From an uncultured delta proteobacterium (GTDB lineage: Bacteria; Myxococcota_A; Polyangia; Polyangiales; Houyiibacteriaceae), in contig CAVOVB010000001.1 of the NCBI GenBank assembly GCA_963699755.1, positions 1,024,001 to 1,088,000 on the forward strand: a stretch of DNA of 64,000 nucleotides, given 5' to 3'. Shown here piece by piece: positions 1-15,355 of this stretch. The notes under the pieces were generated by a model. That model ran no database searches. It was not told the origin of the DNA and saw only the letters and a list, made by a program, of their open reading frames with translations. Each line of letters starts with the position of its first letter. Position 1 is the first letter of the stretch. The position numbers and the translations under genes are program-made.

Positions 1-96
1 CGAAGTTGGAGAATCGCGCATCCGGCATTCAGGGCCTTGAACGTCAACTCTAGGGGGCGTTCCGTGAGCTCTACGTCGACGATCGCGTAGAGAGAA

Positions 97-960
97 TCAA
101 TCAACGGGCTCGTCTCCAGTCAGCTTGTCATAGAGCTCCGGCCGGCGATCGCGGAAGAAGCCCCAGTTGGCACGGTAGAGACGAAGCGCGTCGCGATCGA
201 ACGAAGCACAAGCCACGCCTTCTTCCTCTCGCCCGAGCTCGGCGCGAAGATCACCGCGCTGATCGCAGACGAAGGAGCTGCCATAGAAGGATAGATTTCC
301 TTCGGTGCCAACGCGGTTGGCCGCGGCCACGGGCATGGCGTTGGCCACCGCATGACCGATCATCACGCGTCGCCAGGGCGGCTGACTGTCCTCCTCCGGC
401 GCCTCCGGCTCACTGCCGATTGCGGTTGGATAGAGCAAGGCCTCGGCTCCTTGGAGGGCCATGCTCCTAGCCGCTTCCGGAAACCACTGGTCCCAGCAGA
501 TACCGACACCGATGCTGCCGTGGCGGGTTTTCCAGACCCGAAAACCCGTGTCACCGGGCCGAAAGTAGAACTTCTCCTGGTAGCCAGGGCCGTCTGGGAT
601 GTGGCTCTTGCGGTACAAGCCGAGCCGCCTCCCGTCGGCGTCGATTGTCACTAGGCTGTTGTAGTAGGCTTGGCCCGCGCGTTCGAAGAAAGAGATCGGA
701 AGAACCACCTCGAGCTCGGCAGCCAGGGCTTGCATGCGCGTCACGGTGGGATGTGAGTCGAGTGGCGCCGCCAAGTCGAACGCACGCTCGTCTTCGTTCT
801 GCGGGAAGTAGGGACCTTCGAAGAGCTCCGGCGTGACGATGATCTGCGCGCCGCGCCCTGCGGCCTCGCGAACCAGAGCTTCGATTCGGGCGACGTTGGC
901 TTCCAGCGAATCGCCAAGGGCGCACTGGACGATTCCGATGGAAAGTGAAGAGGCGGTCAT
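97..960 (-). CDS. aguB: N-carbamoylputrescine amidase (nitrilase superfamily)
   Basis: Catalytic-triad motifs PELF, YRKSHIPDGPGYQEKFYF and GICWDQWFPE. Start taken at ATG 960, which overlaps the aguA stop (ATGA). Confidence 0.93.
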   Translation of the reverse strand: MTASSLSIGIVQCALGDSLEANVARIEALVREAAGRGAQIIVTPELFEGPYFPQNEDERAFDLAAPLDSHPTVTRMQALAAELEVVLPISFFERAGQAYYNSLVTIDADGRRLGLYRKSHIPDGPGYQEKFYFRPGDTGFRVWKTRHGSIGVGICWDQWFPEAARSMALQGAEALLYPTAIGSEPEAPEEDSQPPWRRVMIGHAVANAMPVAAANRVGTEGNLSFYGSSFVCDQRGDLRAELGREEEGVACASFDRDALRLYRANWGFFRDRRPELYDKLTGDEPVD

Positions 961-1955
961 GGGGCCCTGGGCTGAGCTTGTGTGACGCAGTGAAACGCTC
1001 CGCCTCCCCATAGCAGGTCTGCGGCCGGCAAGCCGATCACCTCTCGACCCCGAAAGGCGTTTCCGATCTCGGCGAGCACGGCTCGGTCTTCCGGGAGGCC
1101 GTAGGTTGGAACGATCACGGCAGCGTTGGCGATGTAGAAGTTGCAGTAGCTGGCTGGCAGCGGCTCCCCATTGGGCGCTTGCAGAGCAGACGGTGACGGG
1201 ATTTCGATCGCGTTCAGTCCGCTTGCGCGCAGCTCCCGCACGATCGAATCAAGCACGGCGGCGTTCGGTTTCCCTGGGGTCGACTTCATGCAAAGCACCG
1301 TATCGGCTGCCACGAAACGCGCGACCATGTCGACATGACCATCGGTGTGGTCATGCTCCAAGCCCGCATCGAGCCAAATCAAACGATCGATCGATACCAG
1401 ATCGCTGAGGGCCTTTTCGAAAGAAGCGCGCGTTAATCCCGGATTCCGATTGGGGTTCAGGGCGCACGAAGCGGTGGTTAGAAAGGTTCCCTGACCGTTC
1501 GTCTCGAGGGCGCCTCCCTCCAAGACGAGAGGACAGTCGAGGCGCATCGCCCCGAGTCGCTCGGTCAGCCAGTTGCTGACCCCCGAGTCGAACGGGATCG
1601 GGTACTTGCCACCCCAGCCGTTGAACTCGAAGCAGAGGCCGCCGAGGGAGCCGTCGCTCCTGTGCCCTAGGAGCGGCGCCGTGTCGCGCAGCCAGCAGTC
1701 GCCGTAGTCAGCCGTGACATAGCGAACATTGAGAACCTCACCGATCAACGAGCGCGCCCGCGCCTCGACTTGATCGTTCTTCACGAGAAGCCGCACGGGC
1801 TCGTTTCCCGCCTCGGCGATTGTTCGACAGAGTGCCGCAATTGACCGTTGTGCCTGGCCGAGGTTGAAGGGCCATTCCGCTTGAGAATACGGAAATCCGA
1901 GCCAACAAGCGCTGTGCGGCTCCCATTCAGCCGGAAGCCGAAGTCGTTCGTTCAC
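957..1955 (-). CDS. aguA: agmatine deiminase
   Basis: Motifs PAEWEPH, WLRD, FNGWGGKY, LEGG, HTDGHVD, ASYCNFY and C-terminal GGGAFHCVTQ. Adjacent to aguB. Confidence 0.93.
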   Translation of the reverse strand: MNERLRLPAEWEPHSACWLGFPYSQAEWPFNLGQAQRSIAALCRTIAEAGNEPVRLLVKNDQVEARARSLIGEVLNVRYVTADYGDCWLRDTAPLLGHRSDGSLGGLCFEFNGWGGKYPIPFDSGVSNWLTERLGAMRLDCPLVLEGGALETNGQGTFLTTASCALNPNRNPGLTRASFEKALSDLVSIDRLIWLDAGLEHDHTDGHVDMVARFVAADTVLCMKSTPGKPNAAVLDSIVRELRASGLNAIEIPSPSALQAPNGEPLPASYCNFYIANAAVIVPTYGLPEDRAVLAEIGNAFRGREVIGLPAADLLWGGGAFHCVTQAQPRAP

Positions 1956-1964
1956 CGTCGAAAC

Positions 1965-2966
1965 CTACCACGCGAACACGCGGGCCTCACCGAACCGCGC
2001 GACCATGGCGTTGACGTGCTCGAGGACCGCACGACGCCGCTCTGCGAGTCCCTCGAGTTGCTTCTCGTTGAGCACTGGAGCAAGCGGATCTCCACGCAAA
2101 CGGGCAGAAAACGCCGCAATATCGAGCTTTCGCACCGCTTCGATCGTCGAGCGACGAAAGCGCTGAAGGGCCCTCAAGCGAGCCTCCATCAGGCCCAGGC
2201 GCTGCTCTCCGGGCCAGAAGCCGGCACCGTTGTCCAAGTAGATCAGCGGGCCGCCCTCTCCCCGCGATCGAAGGTTGGTGAAGTCGCCCCCCCAGCGGTC
2301 GACGTTTTGGGTGAGATAATCGAATACGATCAGGTCGGAGAGCTCCGCGGGCCGCTGCGCAATATCAGGGGTCTTTGCGATCGGTCGACTCGGATCGGTC
2401 GCTTCGCGAATTCCCGAGCGCCTGTTCAGATCGGCGCGATAATCTACAGGTCGTTGGTAGGGAGTGATCGGAAGCGAGCTCTGAACCCGTAGCCAGCGCT
2501 CCCAGTTGCGACCCACGCGAATGCGTTTGAGTGGCTCCGGGATCCACCAGATGAACGCGCCCTTTAGCGTGCCATCCGGCGCAATGCCGAGCTCGCTCAC
2601 CCGCGGATCACTTCCGGCGGCAGCTCGCAGCTCGCTCCACCGAAATCTGCGACCGCTTGTCGGAGGTACCCGGCCCAGCCCGAGCTCGCGATCGAGATAG
2701 TACGCGGCGACCTCTGAGTACCAGTGGGCCGCGGAGAAGGTCTGCTTGGGCTTGAAATAGCCCCGAGTCCCGTCCGCGAGCCTGATCTCGAAGGCCAGGC
2801 TGCGGCCCCCTTTGCCCTTGTTTACCCCCGCGATCTCCTCTGTCCTCAGCGCTGCAATTCGCTCGCTATCCGCCTCTCCGAGAAAGGCGTCTGCGCTGCT
2901 CTGCGCGGCGACCGTCCAGGGCATGAGGAGCGCCATCAGCAGGGCGATCGAGGCGACTCGCAGCAC
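1965..2966 (-). CDS. secreted Fam20C/four-jointed-like atypical kinase
   Basis: Sec signal peptide (…PWTVAA|Q). Motifs FKP, EVAAYYLDRELG..RVPP, FDYLTQNVDR and YLDNGAGF, plus C-terminal LRGDPLAPVL. Confidence 0.8.
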   Translation of the reverse strand: MLRVASIALLMALLMPWTVAAQSSADAFLGEADSERIAALRTEEIAGVNKGKGGRSLAFEIRLADGTRGYFKPKQTFSAAHWYSEVAAYYLDRELGLGRVPPTSGRRFRWSELRAAAGSDPRVSELGIAPDGTLKGAFIWWIPEPLKRIRVGRNWERWLRVQSSLPITPYQRPVDYRADLNRRSGIREATDPSRPIAKTPDIAQRPAELSDLIVFDYLTQNVDRWGGDFTNLRSRGEGGPLIYLDNGAGFWPGEQRLGLMEARLRALQRFRRSTIEAVRKLDIAAFSARLRGDPLAPVLNEKQLEGLAERRRAVLEHVNAMVARFGEARVFAW

Positions 2967-3167
2967 CGACGGGAGCGTACTGCCCGTTCAGCTCAAACCC
3001 ATAGTTTTGGGGTTCAACGAATCCCAGGCGGTGCCGCACATCCGTCCGACAAAGTATTACTTTTGCCCTAAGCGGGTGAAAAAGCGGAGTTTTGGGCCTC
3101 ACCAAAGCGCCGCGCTTAACCCCTCCGGCTGGCGAAACGCGAGGATCTGTCGCAATAATGATCCTGC

Positions 3168-4835
3168 ATGAGTCTCGGGGGGATGATCCATACGACGCGG
3201 CTACTCGTGGTGGCCTCTGCGATCGCGCTCTTGGCAGGCTGTGAAGGCTTGATCGGTGACGCCGAGGGCGGTCCAGCCAGGGCTGCGGAGGCGTTCCTCT
3301 GCCAGAATCCTAACGCAATCACAGTCGGGTCATCTCCGGTGAGACGCCTCACGAACACCGAGTACGAAAACACCATACGCGACCTCCTGGGTGGGAACGT
3401 TCCCCAGGTGCCAGAACAGCCGAGCGATGCAGTCTTGGAAGGCTCCTTCGAGAACGACGCACAGTCTCTCGGCCCATCCGATGTTCGTATTGCGCGCTAT
3501 GAAACCGCGGCGATGACCCTGGGCGAGCACGCGGTCAACGACTCCACCGCGCGCAATCGCGTGGTTCCTTGCGCAACGGCGGATGCCGATTGCGGCCGGC
3601 AGTTCGTCGAGAGCTTTGGCAAGCGAGCGTTTCGTCGCCCCCTTACCGAGGCCGAGCTCAGCCGCTGGGTCGACTTCTTCGAATCGCAGCGCGTCTCCAT
3701 CGACTTCGATGCCGCAGTCCAGTTGACCGTCGCCGCAATGCTGCAGACGCCACAGTTCCTCTACCGACTCGAGAGCGAAGGCGGCGCCGCAGACGTGAAT
3801 CATATCGAGCTGAGCCAGCACGAGCTTGCGAGCCGACTTTCGTACTTCCTCTGGGAAACGATGCCGGATGACGCGCTCCTTGCAGCGGCGGACGCCGGTG
3901 AGCTCGAGACCGACGCCCAGCTCGAAGAACAGGCTCGGCGGCTTCTTGCGGACAGGCGCGCGCGCGACGCAGTACGGAACTTCCATCGCCAGTGGCTGTA
4001 CCTCGATCGGGTGCTCGACGAGGACAAGGTAGCGGAGCTCTTTCCCATGTGGGGCCCGCAGGCACGCGCCTCTGCCAAAGAAGAAACCCTCCGTTTCATC
4101 GAGACCACCTTCTTCGAGGGGGGCACGGTCGAGGATCTGTTCACCAGCAATCTCGCCTATGTCGACGACGTGATGTCGGAGCTCTACGACATCCCCGCAC
4201 CCTCCGAGCCCTGGGCTCAGGTCGAGCTCGATCCGACCGAGCGCGCAGGCCTTCTGAGCCGCGTCGCATTCCTTGCCGGCTTTGCACACGAGGCGAACGG
4301 CTCTCCTCCGCTTCGCGGCGTCTTCGTGATGGAGCGTCTGCTTTGTGAGCCGCGTCCCTCGCCACCTGCGAACGCCGATACTTCCGTGCCGGAGCCCGAT
4401 CCCAACGCAGGGCCGGTGACCAACCGCGACCTGTTTGAGGAACGCGTGGCTCCGTCGGCCTGCCAGGGTTGTCACGTTCGAATCGACGGCTTTGGCTTCG
4501 GATTTGAGAACTACGACGCCGCTGGCATATTCCGTAGTGAGGAGAACGGGCTTCCGGTCGATGCATCCGGCTTCGCAAACGGCATCGGAAACGACGCCGC
4601 GTACGAAGGCGCCGTCGAGCTGCAAAACCTTCTCGGCCAGAGCGAAGTCGTTCGCGATTGCGTTGCGAAGCAGTGGTTCACCTATGCGAACGGCCGACCG
4701 ATGGAGCCCGCCGACACCTGCCAGGTCGAGGCGATTCAGGCCGAGCTCGAAGCAAACGGAGGCGACCTCGTCGAGCTACTGGTGAGTATTGTGACCCGCC
4801 CCGAGTTCCGGCTCCGCACCAGCGGAGAGAGCTAA
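3168..4835 (+). CDS. DUF1592-family lipoprotein (DUF1587/1595/1592/1588/1585 architecture) with one c-type heme motif
   Basis: Lipobox LAGC. Motifs RRLTNTEYENTIRDL, AFRRPL, ELASRLSYFLW, SPPLRG and CQGCH. The start may be the ATG at 3183. Confidence 0.88.
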   Translation: MSLGGMIHTTRLLVVASAIALLAGCEGLIGDAEGGPARAAEAFLCQNPNAITVGSSPVRRLTNTEYENTIRDLLGGNVPQVPEQPSDAVLEGSFENDAQSLGPSDVRIARYETAAMTLGEHAVNDSTARNRVVPCATADADCGRQFVESFGKRAFRRPLTEAELSRWVDFFESQRVSIDFDAAVQLTVAAMLQTPQFLYRLESEGGAADVNHIELSQHELASRLSYFLWETMPDDALLAAADAGELETDAQLEEQARRLLADRRARDAVRNFHRQWLYLDRVLDEDKVAELFPMWGPQARASAKEETLRFIETTFFEGGTVEDLFTSNLAYVDDVMSELYDIPAPSEPWAQVELDPTERAGLLSRVAFLAGFAHEANGSPPLRGVFVMERLLCEPRPSPPANADTSVPEPDPNAGPVTNRDLFEERVAPSACQGCHVRIDGFGFGFENYDAAGIFRSEENGLPVDASGFANGIGNDAAYEGAVELQNLLGQSEVVRDCVAKQWFTYANGRPMEPADTCQVEAIQAELEANGGDLVELLVSIVTRPEFRLRTSGES

Positions 4836-4839
4836 CCCC

Positions 4840-6261
4840 ATGAGCCGAAGCCCATTCATCATCGATCGTCGCCGTTTCCTAGGCACGCTGGGTTTGACCG
4901 CAGGGTCGCTGATGTTGCCTTCATTCCCGGGGCGCAGAGCCCATGCGCAGTCCGCCCCGAAGCGTCTCGTGCTTTTCATCACACCGCATGGCACGGTGCC
5001 GGGGCGTTGGCACATGCGCCAACCGGGCCGCGACAACGAGGAGTACGACTATTCGCTCAGCGGCCTGAGCGAATCCCAATTCAGCCAAATTCTTCGTCCC
5101 CTCCACCGTCACCGAGACAAGCTTCTGATCGTCGACGGCTTGGCACGCATGGTGACCTATGCCGAGGAATACCGCGTGGCAGACCTCGGGTACGCTGGTG
5201 ACGTCAACCGTCACCACATCGGCCAGGCGCACCTGCTGACGAATACCTGGGCGTTCCAAGGTGCGGCTACAGCCCGTGGCGGCGCTCATTCCATCGACCA
5301 GGAAATCGGCAATGCGGTCGGTCAGCCGGGACGCTGGAATAGTCGCGTCTACGGGTTCAATCATCAGCACGCCTACAATTATGTGGGGGCCAACCAGCCG
5401 GCACCGCGGGAGCAGAACCCACAGGCCGCGTTCAACGACATTCTCGGCCTGGCGCCCGCGCCGAGCGAAGCCGGAGAGCCAAGCCGCGCCGACATGCTCG
5501 ATGCTGCGCGCGCCAGCGTTCTCGACATGGCAAGCGAGGAGTTTGCCACGGTGTTGCCGAAGCTCAGCGCCGCGGATCGAGAGAAGCTCGAGCGGCATCG
5601 CACGCTCGTCCGGGACCTCGAAGTCGGTGTGAACCTCAGCGCTCCGATGGGATGCGACCCATCTTTCTCAGCTCAGGGGCATGTCATCGATCAGTTCTCG
5701 CGACTCACGACCATGGCGCTCGCGTGCGACCTGACTCGCGTCGTGACCCTGGTGACGCAGGACATTCCAGGAAACGAATTCGGCGTATCGCCTGGGATCG
5801 ACATGCACCAGGATATCGCGCATTCGTCGGACGAGAACAGCGGCAGCTCGCAGGGTGTCGAGGGGATGACCGAGTACAACCGGGTGTATGCAGAGCACTT
5901 CGCTTACCTGCTAGACCAGCTCGATTCCGTCCAGGAAGCGGGCGGCACCTTGCTCGACAATAGCGCCGTGGTGTGGGTTTCGGAGCTTGGAACGGGCACA
6001 CACGAGATTAGTCGCGTGCCAAACGTGATCGCCGGTGGCGCCGGGGGGTACTTCAGGCCCGGGCGCTACGTGCACTACCCTCAAAGCGCGCTTACCGTCG
6101 GCTGGGGCCACCAAGCGCAGGTCGGGCCGGCCCATGAGCGGCTGAACGTCAGCTTGATGCATGCGATGGGGATGACCGATCGGAGCTACTTCGGCCTCGA
6201 GCAGGTGACCATCGGCGGGCAAACCATCTCGCTCCGCGACCCGGTGCCGCGCCTCACCTAG
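4840..6261 (+). CDS. DUF1552-family protein, predicted Tat substrate
   Basis: Twin-arginine signal DRRRFLGTLG. Motifs KRLVLF, SIDQ, ALACDLTRV, TLLDNS and IAGGAGG. Starts 4 bp downstream of the DUF1592 gene. Confidence 0.88.
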   Translation: MSRSPFIIDRRRFLGTLGLTAGSLMLPSFPGRRAHAQSAPKRLVLFITPHGTVPGRWHMRQPGRDNEEYDYSLSGLSESQFSQILRPLHRHRDKLLIVDGLARMVTYAEEYRVADLGYAGDVNRHHIGQAHLLTNTWAFQGAATARGGAHSIDQEIGNAVGQPGRWNSRVYGFNHQHAYNYVGANQPAPREQNPQAAFNDILGLAPAPSEAGEPSRADMLDAARASVLDMASEEFATVLPKLSAADREKLERHRTLVRDLEVGVNLSAPMGCDPSFSAQGHVIDQFSRLTTMALACDLTRVVTLVTQDIPGNEFGVSPGIDMHQDIAHSSDENSGSSQGVEGMTEYNRVYAEHFAYLLDQLDSVQEAGGTLLDNSAVVWVSELGTGTHEISRVPNVIAGGAGGYFRPGRYVHYPQSALTVGWGHQAQVGPAHERLNVSLMHAMGMTDRSYFGLEQVTIGGQTISLRDPVPRLT

Positions 6262-7741: not shown

Positions 7742-10700
7742 TCAGTGAAAGTCGCGGGATTGGTGTGTGTGCTCGGCGAGTGAAACGTCTGGGGCCCATA
7801 GCGACTTTGCGATCAGGTGAATGACGCCATCGGCTTTTTGAATTTCTCCCGTCACGCCGAGTAGGGATGCGGTTTTGGCAAGCACGGCATGGCGGTCGAA
7901 GACCTGCTTCCAAACGACGACGTTGACGAAGCCGGTTTCGTCTTCGAGGGTGAAGAAAGTAACGCCAGACGCCGTGCCCGGACGCTGGCGGCAGATCACC
8001 ATGCCGACGTACTCGAGCTCGTCCCCGTGTCCGCAGCCATGGATTCGGCTTGCTTCGGGTATGCCTCGTGAACGAAGTGCGCCGCGAAGCCCTCGCATGG
8101 GATGGCCGCGTGTGCTGTGATGACTCGAGCGGTAATCCCAGATCACCTCGTCCTCACTTGCCAACGATGCGAATGAGATCTGACTCGGTCCAGGTTCGAG
8201 CGGTAAGGAATCCTGCACAAAGCGTGACAAGCTCCGTACCTGCCAAATCGCGTCGCGCCGGTTGAGACCGAAACACTCGAAGGCGCCCGCTTCAGCCAGC
8301 GCATGCAGGGCCTTCTTGTTGAGCCCGGTCCGTCGAACGAAGGTCGCTAGATTTGGCAGCGGCAGCTCCGTAGCTTCGATGCGCTCTCGCTCGAGGACTC
8401 CGAGCCCCTTCACATAGCGAAGTCCCATCCGCACCCCGTAAAGACGACGCTTTGCGTCGTTCAGGGGGCTTTGCCCCGTCTTGCTGTCTATCGGGAACAG
8501 GGTGCAATCCCATTGGCTTTTGTTGATGTCGATGGGGTGCACCTCGACGCCGTGGCGCTTCGCGTCTTCAACCAGTGTGGCCGGGCTGTAGAAGCCCATC
8601 GGCTGGGCGTTCAAGATCGCACAGGTGAACACCTCGTGGTGATGACGCCGGAGCCAAGCGGTGACGTAGGCCAGCAAGGCAAACGACGCGGCATGGCTCT
8701 CTGGAAAGCCGTACTCACCAAAGCCACGAATCTGCGAAAACACACGCTCCGCAAACTCCTCGGGGATGCCTTCTTCGAGCATACGCGGGACCATGCGCGC
8801 CCGGTGTTTCTCGATACGGCCGGACTTCCGCCATGCGGCCATGTCACGGCGCAACTGATCGGCTTCGCCTGCTGTGTAGCCGGCGGCTTCGACGGCTAGC
8901 TTCATGACTTGCTCTTGGAAAATCGGGATGCCGAGAGTCTTCTTCAAGATGCGCTCCAACTTCGGGTGTGGATAGACGACTTCTTCTTCGCCCTTACGCC
9001 GACGCAGGTACGGATGTACCATGTCACCTTGGATCGGACCGGGACGCACGAGCGCAACTTCGATCACCAAGTCATAGAAGGTCCGTGGCTTAAGCCGTGG
9101 CAGCATCGCCATCTGTGCACGGCTTTCGATTTGAAAGACCCCGACTGTATCGCCTTTCGACACCATCTCGTACGTGGCCTCATCTTCGGCAGGGACTGTC
9201 GCGATCTCGAGGTCCTGCCCTTTGTGCTCGCGCAGTAGATCAAACGCGCGGTGAATGCAGCTGAGCACTCCGAGGCCCAAGAGATCGACCTTGAACAGGG
9301 CCAAATTGTCGACGTCGTACTTGTCCCACTGGATGACGGTGCGGGCCCCCATGCTTGCCGGCTCGATTGGAACGATCTCGTCGACGGGACGATGACCTAG
9401 AAGGAACCCGCCCGGGTGAATCGATAAATGCCTTGGAAAATCGAGCACTTGAGTCGCTAGAGACCAGAGCAGCTGAGTAGCCGGAGCGTCCTTGTCGAGG
9501 CCGGCTTCTCGAAGGAGCTCGGGGTTGAAGCTGTCGTCGCGATGCCTCAGTAGTCGTGTCGCGGTCTCCAGATCCGTTCGGGCCAGGCCGAGCACTTTGC
9601 CGACATCACGGACCGCAGAACGAATACGATAGCGAATGATGTTTGCGACCATCGCGGCATGGCGGCGCCCGTATTTTTCGTAGACGTGTTGAATGACTTC
9701 TTCGCGACGCTCGTGCTCGATGTCGAGGTCGATATCTGGTGGCTCGGCACGTTCGACGCTCAAGAAACGTTCGAACAACAAGTCCATGCGCACGGGATCG
9801 ATTGCGGTTATTCCTAGACAAAAACAGACTGCGCTGTTGGCGGCACTGCCGCGCCCTTGACAGAGGATGTTTTTCTGACGGCAGTATTGAACGATTTCGT
9901 ACATCGTGAGGAAGTAGCCGCCATAGTCCAGCTTGCGAATGATCTGAAGCTCGCGTTCGATCTGAGCGCAAACGTCATCGGGCACTTTGCCCCGGTAGCG
10001 CGTCCGCGCACCGCGAAACGTGAGCTCGCGCAACCAGCCTTGCTCGTTGTGGCCGGAAGGAAGACGCTCTTCTGGATATCGATAACGAAGGTCATCGAGG
10101 CTGAACGTGCACTGTTCAGCGATCTCGATCGTGCGACGAAGGCAGGCAGGGTCGTCCGAAAAGAGACGTTCGAGCTCCTCGGCAGGTTTGAGGTCGTGCT
10201 CCGCGTTTGCGCAGATCGTACGGCCGGCTTCCGAAAGCACTTTCCCCTCGCGAATGCAGGTCAAAACGTCCTGAAGTGGGCGCCGGATCTTGTCGTGATA
10301 GAGGACTTCGTTGACACCGACCGTCTGAACTTCGAGCTCTCTTGCGACAGAGCGCAAGGTTTTTTCTTTTGGCTTTTCGTGATCGCTCAGATGACGAGCG
10401 CAAAGGGCGAACACCGAGGAAGGTCCATGGCTCGCGTGCAGGGCGCGCAAGGCTTCAGGCCTTGTGGAGAGAAAGAACAAGTCGTGCAACGGATCCAGCT
10501 CTTTGCTGTGAATGAGAGAAACTCCCTTCTCGCAGCGGGCATGACCGATTGACAAGATTCTGCAGAGATCAGCATAGCCGCGTCGCGTCTTGGCGAGAGC
10601 AACGACATGCTCTGCATGCCCTTCGATCTCGACCATGAGCTGAGCCCCGATCACAATTCGGATCCCGAGCTCTTTGGCTCTCATATGTGCGCGTACGAGG

Positions 10701-10840
10701 CCATACACCCCGTCACGGTCGGTCATTGCAACTGCAGAAAGACCGAGCGCATGTGCACGTTCGACCAGCTCTTCGGGAAAGGATGCGCCTTCCAAAAAGC
10801 TGTGGTTGCTCTTGACCCACAACGGCACGTAAGCGCTCAT
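7742..10840 (-). CDS. dnaE2: error-prone DNA polymerase DnaE2 (ImuC)
   Basis: PHP N-terminus, motifs GRGSAANS, PPDIDLD and YGFPESHA, and the C-terminal SRDFH DnaE2 signature. Confidence 0.96.
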   Translation of the reverse strand: MSAYVPLWVKSNHSFLEGASFPEELVERAHALGLSAVAMTDRDGVYGLVRAHMRAKELGIRIVIGAQLMVEIEGHAEHVVALAKTRRGYADLCRILSIGHARCEKGVSLIHSKELDPLHDLFFLSTRPEALRALHASHGPSSVFALCARHLSDHEKPKEKTLRSVARELEVQTVGVNEVLYHDKIRRPLQDVLTCIREGKVLSEAGRTICANAEHDLKPAEELERLFSDDPACLRRTIEIAEQCTFSLDDLRYRYPEERLPSGHNEQGWLRELTFRGARTRYRGKVPDDVCAQIERELQIIRKLDYGGYFLTMYEIVQYCRQKNILCQGRGSAANSAVCFCLGITAIDPVRMDLLFERFLSVERAEPPDIDLDIEHERREEVIQHVYEKYGRRHAAMVANIIRYRIRSAVRDVGKVLGLARTDLETATRLLRHRDDSFNPELLREAGLDKDAPATQLLWSLATQVLDFPRHLSIHPGGFLLGHRPVDEIVPIEPASMGARTVIQWDKYDVDNLALFKVDLLGLGVLSCIHRAFDLLREHKGQDLEIATVPAEDEATYEMVSKGDTVGVFQIESRAQMAMLPRLKPRTFYDLVIEVALVRPGPIQGDMVHPYLRRRKGEEEVVYPHPKLERILKKTLGIPIFQEQVMKLAVEAAGYTAGEADQLRRDMAAWRKSGRIEKHRARMVPRMLEEGIPEEFAERVFSQIRGFGEYGFPESHAASFALLAYVTAWLRRHHHEVFTCAILNAQPMGFYSPATLVEDAKRHGVEVHPIDINKSQWDCTLFPIDSKTGQSPLNDAKRRLYGVRMGLRYVKGLGVLERERIEATELPLPNLATFVRRTGLNKKALHALAEAGAFECFGLNRRDAIWQVRSLSRFVQDSLPLEPGPSQISFASLASEDEVIWDYRSSHHSTRGHPMRGLRGALRSRGIPEASRIHGCGHGDELEYVGMVICRQRPGTASGVTFFTLEDETGFVNVVVWKQVFDRHAVLAKTASLLGVTGEIQKADGVIHLIAKSLWAPDVSLAEHTHQSRDFH

Positions 10841-12322
10841 TCAATCGAGCACTCCATGCAAGAACCAGCGCCTTCGCGGACGATCGTAGAAGAGCCAAAG
10901 CAAGTCGCCCTGATCGGTTTCTGCGTAGTAGTAGTCGCGTTCGACGAGACGCTTCCACCAGCCACCGCTCACGCGATACGGGCCATACATGTGCTCGATA
11001 GAATGCTCTTTCGCGAGTGAAGGCCCGGCCTCGGGCTCCTCGGGGATACGGGGAGGGAGCGGCTTGGGACGAGCAAAAACCCTTCTAACCATTGAGGAAA
11101 TTGGGCCTATCGCGGCTTGCTCGCCCATTCGAGCCTGCTGAATGGGCTCCCAGCGAAAGGAGGCCTCCGGCAAATGCGCCTCTCGCAGGCGTGCCCGGGT
11201 CACCGACTGTTCGCCGTATGCTGCACGAACTCGGTCGAGCGCGCGATGTGCAGCTCTCATGTCGCGACGGGCTTGATGACCGGGGAGCGCAACTTGCTCT
11301 GCCTGTGAGCGCACCGTCTTGGCGACGATCTCCACTTCTTCGACTGCGCCTTGCAAGCTCCGTTCGCCGAGGCGAAGGCGGATGAGCTCGAGTAACAACA
11401 TCAGATCCAAGGTCGGTGATGCTGGCTCGATTTGTTCTTGGTGAAGAGGTGCGCGCTCCAAATGCAATGAAAGCTCGAGTGCTTGAATTGATTCTCCACG
11501 GGCACGAACCTGATGCAGCAAGGAATGCAGAGCGCCTTTGACTGCAAACAGCAAACGGCTCTGATCTCTGTCGGGAGGCTCGACTTGAAAAGCGATGCGA
11601 GCGGGCTCTTCGAATGCATGTGGCTGAATCGGCAGCTGCATGTCTTCGGAAAACGAATCGTGAAGCGTGCTTGCCCTAGTGCCGAAACGACTCAGAAGCT
11701 CTCCTCCAGGAACTGCGAGAAAATCACCGAGTGTTTCGATGCCTAATGCACCAAGACTTTCGCAAAGATCTCCAGGCAGATCGAATTCACGAAGCAAGGT
11801 TTTGTTCGAACGTTCGATCTCTTCCTCGACGCTCTTCGAGATGTAGACTCCGCTCTGTGCCATGGAGACCGCGAGCGCTCGCTGGCGATGAAAGCCAACG
11901 GTCACCGAGTTACGCCAATGTCGGGCGCGCAAATACCGGTGAATCGAGATCGCCCAGTTGCGATAACCGCCATAAAGGCGCCGTAGACCTTCGGGATCGA
12001 GCTGGAACGCGCCAGCCCGATCGAGCGCTTCGACCCGGGGAGAGAAGGTTTGAAGCGCAGAGATCAGCTCTCGGCTGACTTCCGAGGTCTGCTCGGGCAA
12101 GAGGACGGCGGTATGCAGGTTCGGAAGGAGATCACGCGCCACGGTTTGTCGCATGCCAATGCGAAGGCGGTTCTTCTTTGCAAACGCGTTGAGGTGCGTG
12201 ATGCGGCCGTTCGGGCCTTCGTCATCGACAAGGGCAACGGGTGCTGCGCGCCAGCACGGCTTTTGCCGCAAGAGAATTTGCAACGGGAGCATCGGCAAAA
12301 GAACGCAACTCACCCGCCTCAT
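10841..12322 (-). CDS. imuB: ImuB, inactive Y-family polymerase
   Basis: Y-family-like N-terminus (FSPRVE) and C-terminal GPYRVSGGWW…RDYY…WFLHG. Lies between imuA and dnaE2. Confidence 0.92.
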   Translation of the reverse strand: MRRVSCVLLPMLPLQILLRQKPCWRAAPVALVDDEGPNGRITHLNAFAKKNRLRIGMRQTVARDLLPNLHTAVLLPEQTSEVSRELISALQTFSPRVEALDRAGAFQLDPEGLRRLYGGYRNWAISIHRYLRARHWRNSVTVGFHRQRALAVSMAQSGVYISKSVEEEIERSNKTLLREFDLPGDLCESLGALGIETLGDFLAVPGGELLSRFGTRASTLHDSFSEDMQLPIQPHAFEEPARIAFQVEPPDRDQSRLLFAVKGALHSLLHQVRARGESIQALELSLHLERAPLHQEQIEPASPTLDLMLLLELIRLRLGERSLQGAVEEVEIVAKTVRSQAEQVALPGHQARRDMRAAHRALDRVRAAYGEQSVTRARLREAHLPEASFRWEPIQQARMGEQAAIGPISSMVRRVFARPKPLPPRIPEEPEAGPSLAKEHSIEHMYGPYRVSGGWWKRLVERDYYYAETDQGDLLWLFYDRPRRRWFLHGVLD

Positions 12323-12951
12323 GAGCTGCCTCGCAAACCGGATGGAGCGATTGGGATGATCGACGAAAGCTCGGTGGCAATGCCGACTTTGTCTTTGAGA
12401 ACATGCGTGTGAACTTCGAAGTGATCGGCTCGAAGAGAACCGCGTTGCGGCTCAACGCGCAAACCAACCAAAGGGCCGGATGAGGGTTCCTCTCGAGCAT
12501 TCGAAGTGAGTAAGAGAATACGTCCGTCATGCTTGCGCAAGAGACCTTGAAGACGGCCTTGCCAGTTGACCGAAGAACCGGGCGGGAGCGCATCGCTGAG
12601 GTCGATGACCGTCAAGCCGAAGGCACCAGAACGCGCAAGCCACTCGGCAACGCGAACCAACGCGAACGGACCTACATGACGCGGCACGTGAATTGCGATG
12701 AACGAATCGAGGTTCACTCCCGCCGCATCGAGGTCGGGAGGAAACAAGGCGCCGTCTTTGGGCTGTACCCAGGCGACCAGCTCGGCGCGCGCCTGCGCCT
12801 GGATCACACAGGACACCGCCGTGGTCGTCCGCGCACAGGCATGCCTGCCAGAAACCTCGACCAAGCGCCCCCGAGGCAGGAGCTCCGAGAGCGGTAAAGC
12901 TTTCGCTCTAACCCGCCGAGCCTCAAAATCGATGACAGTCCCAAAAGCCAT
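12319..12951 (-). CDS. imuA: ImuA, RecA-like accessory protein
   Basis: LPRGRLVEVSG with a degenerate Walker A (GRHACARTT), plus FPPDL and RSGAFGL. First gene of the cassette; ATG 12951 chosen. Confidence 0.85.
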   Translation of the reverse strand: MAFGTVIDFEARRVRAKALPLSELLPRGRLVEVSGRHACARTTTAVSCVIQAQARAELVAWVQPKDGALFPPDLDAAGVNLDSFIAIHVPRHVGPFALVRVAEWLARSGAFGLTVIDLSDALPPGSSVNWQGRLQGLLRKHDGRILLLTSNAREEPSSGPLVGLRVEPQRGSLRADHFEVHTHVLKDKVGIATELSSIIPIAPSGLRGSS

Positions 12952-12961
12952 GGGACCACCC

Positions 12962-12989
12962 AATATACTGAACAAAATAACAGTTACAA
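12962..12989 (-). promoter_or_regulatory. sigma70-like promoter of imuA with a LexA (SOS) box filling the spacer
   Basis: Minus strand reads TTGTAA-CTGTTATTTTGTTCAG-TATATT. The box at 12968-12983 fits CTG-N10-CAG and CTR-N7-GTTCAG. Confidence 0.75.
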
Positions 12990-13075: not shown

Positions 13076-15355
13076 TCAGACAAGGGTTTGCACCTCCTGT
13101 GCCATCTCGGAAGGCGTGCGATCGCCAAGCCCTGCTGCATGCTGAGTCGCGATGCCGCGAACGACTTCACTCTGGTCCTGCATCATCTGGCTCAGCGCTT
13201 CTTCGTGGGACATCGAGCGCAGGGTTACCCCGAGCGCGGCGGCAGCAATGCGCGCTCGACGCTCCGCCGGCTCTCCTCGGTCGACGATCACTAACACCGC
13301 CTCGCGAAAATAGCCTGGCAATGTCGCTTCCAATACTTCGTGGCTTGCTGCCTGCAAGCGATTGTTCTCGCTCGTCACGCCTCGCCAAACCAAGGCGAAA
13401 TTTTCCTCGGCATGCCTGAGACCCATCAACGAGAACGCTTGCTCCAAGGTTGCCCGCTCCTTGTCTTGGAGCGCGATGCGCAACAGCTCTGCACCTGGCG
13501 TATCCGGACTGCCACTGCCTTCGATGGCCGCGCGCCACTGGAGAAGCTGCACCACGCGTACCAAGCTCGCGCGAAGCTGTTCCTGCAAGAGCGCGTCGTC
13601 GAGAACCGTAGAAGGATGGCTCGCTTGTAAGCGGCCCAGGGCTCGCAGGATCCTCATGCGCAAGCCTCTTTCCTGCTCCCGATCCAAGTGCCGAAGTAGA
13701 ATGTCAGCAGCTTTCTGTGGCTCGAAAAGGATGATCGTATATGGAATGCGAAGACGTACCTTCCAGGGCACCGACGGGTCCGAAAGCGCCGTTTCGAGCG
13801 CATCCAAGGCCTCGGGTCCGATCGCCAGGATCGCTTTGCGCGCGCGCGCTCGCAATTCGGAGCTCCCGAGAAGCGACAAGAGAAGCGGCAGATAGCGTGG
13901 CTCCGGATTTCCCTCCATGGCGCGCAGGGTCTGGAAGCGGACCGAATCGTCATCGTTCACGATCAGCTTGGTCAGGATTTCGTGGAAGACCGCCCCGCCT
14001 TCGTGCGGAATCGCACCTGCGCGGGGCGACTGAGTATGCGAGTTTCCCGTGCCAATCCATTCATCCGACTTGGCGGCCGTCCCGCCGCTGCTGGCGAATG
14101 CCTCGCGCTCGAGCCGCATGTCGATGACGCCGTGCCGAAGTCGCGCGCGGAACTGATCCACGTACTGACGGCGCGTCGACATGATCGCCATGAGCCAGCC
14201 TAGGACGAGAAATAGCAGCGACACGGCGAGCTGCCGGGTGCTCAGCCCCACGCCGACAGCCGCGATGATGAGCAACGATGCCAGCGCCTGCCCCACGCGA
14301 TGCCCGAACACCTCGATCAAGCCCTTCGCCCGTTCGCGCCGTCGGCTGTCGAGCGGCAGGTAGAGCACCTCGATTGCGCCTCGATAGAGCGTGTGACGCA
14401 GGCTCCCATCGACCGCTTTGAGCGCCACGGCAAAAGGCAGAATCGGCCCGATGGCTAGGCCGAGAGCGCCGCCGAAGACCAAGGCAGGCAGAAGCGCCGA
14501 GCTTCGATGGGCGCCGAATGCACGCAAGAGCCAGCCCGCGCCAACGAGCTGCACCAGTAGCGCCACCGTGTTCAAGCCGAGGTAGAAGCGTGCGAAAAAC
14601 GGACCGAGCCCGGCGGGTGGAATCTCGGCCGCGACCGTGCTCTTGAAGACGAAATCGACGATCGTCAGCGTAATCGTTCCCATCAGCACGAACCCGAGGA
14701 TGCGTGCGAGATACTTGTCCCGAAGAAGCCAGCGCATCGATTGCCGCGGTTCAACGCTGGGCTGGTCCGTGGGCGCGACGCTCCGGCTCTTCCATAGAAA
14801 CGGTGTAGCTCCGGCTAGCGCCAGAACCGCGGCGGCAGTGAAGACGAGCGCAAGGGGTGAAGCTAGTCGGAGCACGCCTTCTGAAAGCAAGGACCCGAAC
14901 GTGGCGCCGGTCACGCCGCCGGCTGCAATGGCGGGAAAGATGCGTTTCGCTTGCCTCACAGTCACCGCGTCGTCGAGCAAGAGCCAAAACTCGATCAGGA
15001 CGACCGTAATCAGCAATCCCGTCCAAATGTAGAATCCAAACGGCGCCCAGGAGCCAAGCTCCTCGAGCAGTGCCCAGAAGCCAAGCGTCACCAGCGCGCC
15101 AAACACGAGGGATGCCGACAATAGCCGTCTTCGATCGCGGACGCGGCGAAGCACCTGCTCGTGGATCTTCAACTCCACGATCGCGAGCACGGCAATGGCC
15201 AGATAGGCCCGTGGCAAATGTTCGGCCGGTAAGCTCGTCAGAAACAAGGTGTCACGGGCCGTCTCCATGACCGAATGCGCAGTCGTGATCGCAAGCAAGC
15301 CGATGAAGCCCACTGCCAAGTTCCTTCGATCCTCGCGGCGAACGGAAAAACGCAT
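13076..15355 (-). CDS. Npt1/Npt2 (NTT/TLC)-like MFS transporter fused to HEAT repeats
   Basis: About 12 TM helices with motifs ETARDTLFL, RQAKRIF and DGSLRHTL…EVLYLPL…RAK. Followed by HEAT-like helical repeats. Confidence 0.8.
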   Translation of the reverse strand: MRFSVRREDRRNLAVGFIGLLAITTAHSVMETARDTLFLTSLPAEHLPRAYLAIAVLAIVELKIHEQVLRRVRDRRRLLSASLVFGALVTLGFWALLEELGSWAPFGFYIWTGLLITVVLIEFWLLLDDAVTVRQAKRIFPAIAAGGVTGATFGSLLSEGVLRLASPLALVFTAAAVLALAGATPFLWKSRSVAPTDQPSVEPRQSMRWLLRDKYLARILGFVLMGTITLTIVDFVFKSTVAAEIPPAGLGPFFARFYLGLNTVALLVQLVGAGWLLRAFGAHRSSALLPALVFGGALGLAIGPILPFAVALKAVDGSLRHTLYRGAIEVLYLPLDSRRRERAKGLIEVFGHRVGQALASLLIIAAVGVGLSTRQLAVSLLFLVLGWLMAIMSTRRQYVDQFRARLRHGVIDMRLEREAFASSGGTAAKSDEWIGTGNSHTQSPRAGAIPHEGGAVFHEILTKLIVNDDDSVRFQTLRAMEGNPEPRYLPLLLSLLGSSELRARARKAILAIGPEALDALETALSDPSVPWKVRLRIPYTIILFEPQKAADILLRHLDREQERGLRMRILRALGRLQASHPSTVLDDALLQEQLRASLVRVVQLLQWRAAIEGSGSPDTPGAELLRIALQDKERATLEQAFSLMGLRHAEENFALVWRGVTSENNRLQAASHEVLEATLPGYFREAVLVIVDRGEPAERRARIAAAALGVTLRSMSHEEALSQMMQDQSEVVRGIATQHAAGLGDRTPSEMAQEVQTLV

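Follow-up and report, generated by a model that had tools for sequence, protein, structure and literature searches.

The 333-residue product of an open reading frame in the analyzed DNA stretch (64,000 nucleotides, hereafter the window) is a true Fam20 homologue. Judged by its sequence, it is a strongly conserved Fam20-fold kinase, predicted to be exported, of an uncharacterised myxobacterial family. The explanation that we favor overall, tentatively and at slightly less than an even chance, is that it phosphorylates a glycoconjugate of the cell envelope.

The homology was supported at several levels. The Pfam model Fam20C (PF06702) matched the protein with 37.8 bits (cut-off 26.8; E = 2.1e-9), FAM198 matched weakly and below its cut-off (E = 0.0022), and CotH gave no match at E ≤ 1. 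Using phmmer, human Fam20C was matched with E = 2.2e-13, and the six significant sequence matches in the PDB were all Fam20 proteins, with human Fam20C as the best. A search of a representative library yielded 819 hits at E ≤ 0.001, the best 150 of which were considered; 111 of these 150 listed 50%-identity representatives, picked for coverage, were combined with 7 close homologues into a profile of 118 bacterial relatives. This profile aligned with human Fam20C over the whole span between the Gly-rich loop and the final helix (E = 8.8e-43) and also with hydra Fam20, which lies on the Fam20B side (E = 1.8e-31), while the next family, PI4K type II, reached only 0.03. At E ≤ 0.01, Pfam Fam20C was found in 94 of the 118 family members and CotH in none. 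An earlier, sequence-only reading had proposed a kinase resembling Fam20C on the basis of shared motifs. Indeed, all motifs that it quoted are present in the translation in the same order, those that it gave for Fam20C are the ones in the alignments with PDB 5yh3_C, and the protein is devoid of Cys, as was stated.

The mature part of the protein (residues 28 to 333) was compared with 22 gap-free orthologues. Since dN was low (0.085 to 0.21) and dS high (0.98 to 2.6), we conclude that the reading frame is a real gene, and it is under strong purifying selection. No consensus for a sigma-70 promoter or a terminator was detected at positions 1 to 3400 of the window. The coordinates are listed in Table 1.

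Table 1. Kinase gene, its predicted functional residues and its conserved downstream neighbors (positions in the window)
Feature	Position	Strand	Remarks
Fam20-like kinase gene	1965..2966	minus	GTG start, 333 aa, 0 Cys
Likely Sec signal peptide, residues 1-21	2904..2966	minus	Pattern heuristic; cleavage after Ala21 inferred by eye
Gly-rich loop G53-A58	2793..2810	minus	S56 = Fam20C Q269; A58 = Fam20C K271 (Lys lost)
Lys72, ATP lysine (Fam20C K285)	2751..2753	minus	By alignment
Ala80, position of the Fam20-specific Glu306	2727..2729	minus	Loop from Lys to alphaC Glu has 13 residues vs 26 in Fam20C
Glu85, alphaC glutamate (Fam20C E311)	2712..2714	minus	By alignment
Subfamily-specific insertion of ~30 residues, 160-189	2400..2489	minus	Strongly conserved within the genus; occupies the site of the acceptor-side loop
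Asp223, catalytic base (Fam20C D458)	2298..2300	minus	By alignment
Asn231, nearly invariant catalytic-loop Asn	2274..2276	minus	Human Fam20C has no Asn within 8 residues after D458
Asp245, metal-binding Asp of the DNG motif (Fam20C D478)	2232..2234	minus	Invariant, 118/118
aguA-like gene, agmatine deiminase family	957..1955	minus	Begins 9 bases after the kinase stop codon; conserved neighbor
aguB, N-carbamoylputrescine amidase	97..1011	minus	Above the NCBIfam cut-off; conserved neighbor

An exported location had also been proposed, and heuristics agree with it. The N terminus carries Arg3, a hydrophobic stretch at residues 4 to 15, Pro16 and V-A-A followed by Gln22. A hydrophobic window of 11 residues was present in 115 of 120 close homologues, by a loose rule to which 4 of 15 cytoplasmic controls conform as well. 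Furthermore, codons 2 to 27 diverge fast (dN 0.5 to 1.2) yet remain hydrophobic, in the fashion of signal peptides. Beyond the N-terminal one, no further hydrophobic segment was detected in the protein. Overall, the protein is almost certainly an exported Fam20 homologue.

The AlphaFold2 model (pLDDT 95.5) matched Fam20 structures in Foldseek with E = 2e-16 and TM = 0.67. In VIA-align, Z was 26.0 for hydra Fam20, 25.6 for zebrafish Fam20C and 25.0 for worm Fam20, compared with 15.8 for PI4KII, 13.7 for CtkA and 11.1 for CotH. By modeled fold and by sequence, Fam20 is the closest family by a wide margin, as the sequence-only reading had anticipated. The Fam20C structures (PDB 5yh3, 5yh0 and 4kqa; Z 25.0 to 25.6) superimposed with rmsd 2.7 to 3.4 over 269 to 283 residues. 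The protein shares with Fam20C the motif order, the equivalents of K285, E311, D458 and D478, and the (here predicted) export signal. In contrast to Fam20C, it is bacterial and free of Cys, has only 20 to 24% identity to it, retains the catalytic-loop Asn, and lacks K271, the 13-residue E306 loop and the dimer motifs (beta3-alphaC aromatic motif and FxSP insertion, both segments missing). The N-lobe Cys-rich insertion, which had been said to be absent, is a gap in the profile alignment.

The best structural match was the hydra Fam20 xylosylkinase of the Fam20B type (PDB 5xom and 5xoo; rmsd 3.0 over 273 residues), with a well-conserved hinge strand, and the Fam20C dimer elements are missing in both. 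However, hydra H301, K321 and Y253 correspond to Trp225, Ala248 and Leu159, and the loops with Y148-Y151 and Y214 are gone. Thus, when the Gal-Xyl pocket described in PMC5865150 (hydra T114, Q115, Y148-Y151, Y214, Y253, H301 and K321) was mapped by sequence alignment rather than by superposition, none of the mappable residues was kept. The pseudokinase Fam20A (PDB 5wrr) is similar in having no acid at the E306 position, but its loop is retained, with Gln at that position, and it contains an additional insertion with a disulfide, whereas here the loop is gone and the Gly-rich loop is intact. CotH, the Bacillus spore-coat kinase (PDB 5jda), is bacterial, of the same superfamily and, according to PMC7821199, acts outside the vegetative cytoplasm; however, it is far more distant (8% identity) and is made in the mother-cell cytoplasm. 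The next structures were PI4K type II, CtkA, actin-fragmin kinase (Z 12.4) and HipA (Z 11.9), which lie about 10 Z units below Fam20 and are cytoplasmic or host-directed. Four-jointed/FJX1 and Fam198 belong to the same wider family, as described in PMC7948968. The PDB matches of the profile included no four-jointed protein. Because the E306 loop, K271, the Cys-rich insertion, the dimer motifs and the Gal-Xyl pocket are missing, the protein is predicted to work like a Fam20-fold kinase outside Fam20A, Fam20B and Fam20C. We assign it, by these sequence characters, to a sister family to Fam20 and not to any of the three. The catalytic-loop region of four-jointed presumably resembles the bacterial protein at least as much as that of Fam20C does.

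In the active site, K72, E85, D223 and D245 align with the four Fam20C residues whose roles are described in PMC4421793. This is in line with the earlier claim that the ATP lysine, the alphaC glutamate, the catalytic aspartate and the DNG aspartate are conserved. Neither these four nor N231 vary among the 120 close homologues, and all five occur jointly in 111 of the 118 family members, at a median pairwise identity of 32%. According to PMC4421793, however, Fam20A has the same four residues and yet is a pseudokinase, since its Glu306 is replaced by Gln, and PMC5413348 reports that Lys271 is needed for ATP binding in Fam20C. The position of Glu306 is occupied by Ala, Ser or Thr in 100 of the 118 family members and is acidic in 8; at the position of K271, 112 of the 118 have one of the six most frequent residues, and Lys is not among these. 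Activity is therefore less safe than was first stated, because Fam20A is inactive with the same four residues and our protein is without Glu306 and Lys271. The sequence-only reading had overlooked that K271, E306, the dimer surfaces and the sugar pocket of Fam20B are gone, and that the catalytic-loop Asn is kept. This Asn is nearly invariant in the family, at +6 or +8 from the catalytic Asp and just ahead of the next strand of the model; worm Fam20 has an Asn at +8. Asn231 would supply the metal ligand that Glu306 provides in Fam20C. In addition, a Gln three residues after the ATP lysine is conserved in 102 of the 118 members, and an aromatic residue, which could stack against a sugar, is found two residues after the catalytic Asp in 116. 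The insertion at residues 160 to 189 is a candidate substrate-binding surface. Taken as a whole, the protein is probably an active kinase.

Relatives were detected in 115 of 401 sampled Myxococcota genomes, including 18 of 18 in the genus and 33 of 34 in family f20, with few or none in many other groups. The closest named relatives are in Polyangiales/Myxococcales genomes, including SG8_38, and the ESM Atlas contained bacterial clusters, mostly from Myxococcota, one of which was automatically named after Fam20. The Pfam Fam20C family was found in 0 of 14 control genomes, and single-protein queries of plasmids and viral contigs gave no match. Two queries of longer proteins each yielded a single bacterial protein and nothing eukaryotic. 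Two loci labeled Binatia (L057 and L058) were dropped as chance matches in a stop-ridden frame. A hydrophobic start was present in 81 of 111 relatives and a lipobox-like Cys in 47 of 111. A quick tree of 64 loci resolved several subfamilies; the clade that contains this protein has 23 members and a support of 99. The members from family f20 (L091, L092, L094, L095 and L098-L100) are 750 to 1150 aa long and consist of an N-terminal zinc ribbon, a long low-complexity linker, a membrane helix and a C-terminal kinase domain. Two second copies in this family (L094 and L099) have lost catalytic residues. Families f6 and f15 (L113-L125; genomes G120, G285, G365 and G395) encode multiple divergent paralogues in each genome, and in some of these the alphaC Glu or the ATP Lys is replaced by Asp or Arg.

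The genome under study also has a second Fam20-like gene (G000:C2:656719-657675; L111:6720-7676, minus strand), the product of which is 27% identical and has a signal-like start. This paralogue was present in 39 of 40 genomes of the genus. The position of the ATP lysine is Arg in 15 of the 20 genus copies read and Lys in 5. By analogy with Fam20A and Fam20C, the Arg form is possibly a weakened or regulatory partner.

The kinase gene was followed by aguA and then aguB at 45 of 46 named loci of the genus, and the remaining locus ends just past the gene. Similarly, of 60 metagenomic loci at which the downstream DNA was long enough, 59 had aguA next (68 loci were counted as close, and two more close loci were listed apart). 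An ornithine cyclodeaminase (OCD)-family gene is often located upstream. Among 13 orthologue-bearing genomes outside the genus, which are kin and not independent, aguA follows in 9 and a DUF2079 gene in 7, while in 8 a gene for a NAGPA/DUF2233 phosphodiester glycosidase lies head-to-head upstream. This NAGPA protein starts with a signal and ends in a membrane helix, the layout that PMC13474241 gives for the human Golgi uncovering enzyme, and its DGGGS motif is invariant. The NAGPA neighbor occurs in all early branches of the kinase clade of the quick tree, and in each of the 3 f6 genomes, NAGPA of this type is next to a kinase gene of another subfamily. A model of the DUF2079 protein matched GT-C glycosyltransferases, namely ALG12 (E = 1.3e-5), STT3, ArnT and DPY19; by sequence, it matched nothing in the PDB.

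A NAGPA search of the 401 genomes gave 12 matches below E = 1e-100, 11 of which adjoin the kinase; 9 of these 11 were already in the query alignment, and 2 of the 3 independent matches adjoin it as well. No kinase gene was within 1.5 kb of any of the 18 weaker NAGPA loci. The adjacency may be mere inheritance, because gene order in this clade is sticky: the paralogue retains an acyl-CoA dehydrogenase neighbor across the same families, an association that is equally old. PMC12419801 describes NAGPA beside other enzymes, and its passages on these neighbors make no mention of Fam20. No NAGPA match was found in the genome under study (completeness 100%, contamination 9%), which is also missing the DUF2079 orthologue. 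In a stricter first look, 0 of 18 sampled genus genomes had the NAGPA subfamily, a count to be read as a floor. Since the kinase is strongly conserved in a genus without both genes, it does not need NAGPA or DUF2079. In some members of the genus only, the gap between the OCD gene and the kinase contains a patchy insertion, a DUF1592-family and DUF1552 pair (window 3168-6261, plus strand), which we rejected as a partner.

In the explanation that we favor, a minimal Cys-free kinase with the Fam20 fold would be exported by Sec and act in the periplasm or at the cell surface. Metal-ATP would be bound by K72, E85, D223, N231 and D245, with N231 in the metal-binding role of Glu306, and the phosphate would go to a hydroxyl group on a glycoconjugate of the envelope, the likeliest acceptor being a sugar in a glycan linked to lipid or protein. 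In the ancestral cluster, the GT-C glycosyltransferase would build the phospho-glycan, and the membrane-anchored NAGPA-type enzyme would uncap it or turn it over. Since NAGPA and GT-C-fold neighbors accompany the kinase outside the genus, a glycan substrate is hinted at. PMC5865150 describes Fam20B as a monomeric, older animal form and a glycan kinase; given this precedent and the ancestral neighbors, a glycan acceptor is possible rather than probable. Against it speak the missing counterparts of the hydra sugar-binding residues, K271 and E306, and a genus without NAGPA and DUF2079.

An exported Ser/Thr kinase that modifies periplasmic or surface proteins, like Fam20C, four-jointed or CotH, is a somewhat unlikely alternative. 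It would be consistent with the better profile match to Fam20C than to Fam20B, with the persistence of the kinase in a genus without glycan-enzyme neighbors, with the periplasmic-type PPIase neighbors in several relatives and with the f20 kinase domains behind a membrane helix, which suggest signaling or scaffold roles. CotH, acting on structural coat proteins, is a bacterial precedent (PMC7821199). On the other hand, substrate-side features of Fam20C are missing (the three "clash" elements described in PMC5865150, the Cys-rich insertion and the dimer motifs), the basic substrate loop maps differently in two alignments, and a scan of 216 neighbor and fusion proteins revealed no recurring Ser-rich secreted neighbor. 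We regard it as unlikely that the protein is no conventional kinase at all, being instead a nucleotide-sensing protein or pseudokinase of the Fam20A kind, or else an enzyme that uses the fold for other chemistry or with another phosphoryl donor. The loss of E306 and K271, each essential in Fam20C, the conserved Gln after the ATP lysine, the Arg of most paralogue copies and the general view that the periplasm does not contain ATP would fit such a role. Pseudokinases usually lose canonical kinase residues, whereas here all five are invariant among close homologues and mostly kept together across a divergent family; moreover, CotH is active with an equivalent Asp/Asn/Asp set, as reported in PMC12189002.

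The question of ATP supply would be solved if the protein were a secreted effector that draws on the ATP of prey or competitor cells. The fold is shared by CtkA and HipA, and families f6 and f15 show multicopy expansions. Nevertheless, this is highly unlikely for a slowly evolving single-copy gene in a housekeeping neighborhood in 18 of 18 genus genomes; no immunity-like partner was seen, many relatives are lipoproteins or membrane-anchored, and the searched plasmids and viral contigs lacked the gene. The persistent aguA neighbor, in and outside the genus, and the frequent OCD-family gene upstream could also point to a polyamine-related small-molecule kinase tied to arginine, ornithine or agmatine metabolism. 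This is most improbable, as AguA and AguB have no signal peptides while the kinase has a predicted one, and the earliest sampled branches (f7 and f9) and all other subfamilies show no agu link.

To our knowledge, the periplasm is not regarded as containing ATP. For the favored envelope glycan kinase, lysis, prey or an exporter could be the source of ATP. No conserved ATP exporter was detected in the kinase neighborhood. At a distance of 10 kb from the kinase (window 13076-15355, minus strand), the only TLC match in the genome encodes an NTT/TLC ATP/ADP-transporter-like domain fused to HEAT repeats. The TLC gene lies 1.5 to 16 kb from the kinase in f1 and f8 relatives and elsewhere in f3, f4, f5, f7 and f9; it was found in 0 of 3 f6 genomes, and in f2, 8 of the 15 genomes with the kinase and 4 of the 14 without it have the gene. 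This distribution does not support it as a conserved ATP-supply partner, and we read it as part of a lineage-specific syntenic block (cf. PMC5381601). The MFS neighbors of another kinase subfamily were also rejected, as they resemble drug-efflux MFS proteins and not NTT. For CotH, PMC7821199 likewise treats the source of ATP as an open question.

In the open-access literature, to which the search was directed, no study of bacterial Fam20 proteins was found. PMC7948968 presents Fam20 as conserved across animals, and the kinome survey in PMC9758233 describes the FAM20 cluster as eukaryote- or Metazoa-specific. A preprint (10.64898/2026.05.08.723234) names possible contributions of Myxococcota to the endomembrane functions of eukaryotes, at most five in number, and FAM20B is one of them; the signal is equivocal. 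Identity within the bacterial family goes down to 21 to 27%, as compared with 42% between Fam20B and Fam20C (PMC5865150). A sister or ancestral position fits better than a recent transfer from animals, because the Fam20-specific insertions are missing, the Asn is kept and the internal diversity is greater. Fast evolution with secondary loss could give the same picture. It is doubtful, if conceivable, that Myxococcota were the bacterial stock of the eukaryotic Fam20/four-jointed kinases and of a periplasmic, Golgi-like module for glycan phosphorylation with extracytoplasmic ATP. The genes of such a module would be clustered and specify three proteins: the Fam20-type kinase, an uncovering enzyme of the NAGPA type that is a type I membrane protein, and a GT-C transferase. 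On this view, the minimal kinase, with its Asn and without the loop, would represent the ancestral form, and Glu306 and control by dimerization would have arisen later.

A diverse, putatively exported bacterial branch makes the origin of secretory-pathway kinases testable, as well as the phosphorylation of envelope glycans or proteins by Gram-negative bacteria with ATP outside the cytoplasm. The 300-residue Cys-free version should express easily and would reveal how the Fam20 core works without the loop, disulfides and dimer.

Several other observations were made at related loci and in the window. The kinase subfamily of f10 and f11 (L102, L104, L126 and L128) is encoded directly before a gene for a membrane-anchored HEAT-repeat protein, usually followed by an MFS transporter gene; in P0272, kinase and HEAT repeats are in one frame, possibly due to a frameshift artefact. 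Polysaccharide deacetylase genes (L105:3613-4641 and L106:6931-7347) were near the kinase in 2 of 3 f2 loci examined. Lipoprotein parvulin PPIases adjoining the kinase (L136:5331-5894 and L055:7024-7641) contain long linkers rich in Ser and Glu, in which S-x-E and S-E-E motifs are frequent; these motifs match the Fam20C consensus and make the linkers a candidate protein substrate in those relatives. Finally, the region 7742-12975 of the window (minus strand) contains dnaE2, a type seen by Pfam scan in a relative only, and two upstream genes that resemble imuB and imuA by sequence.
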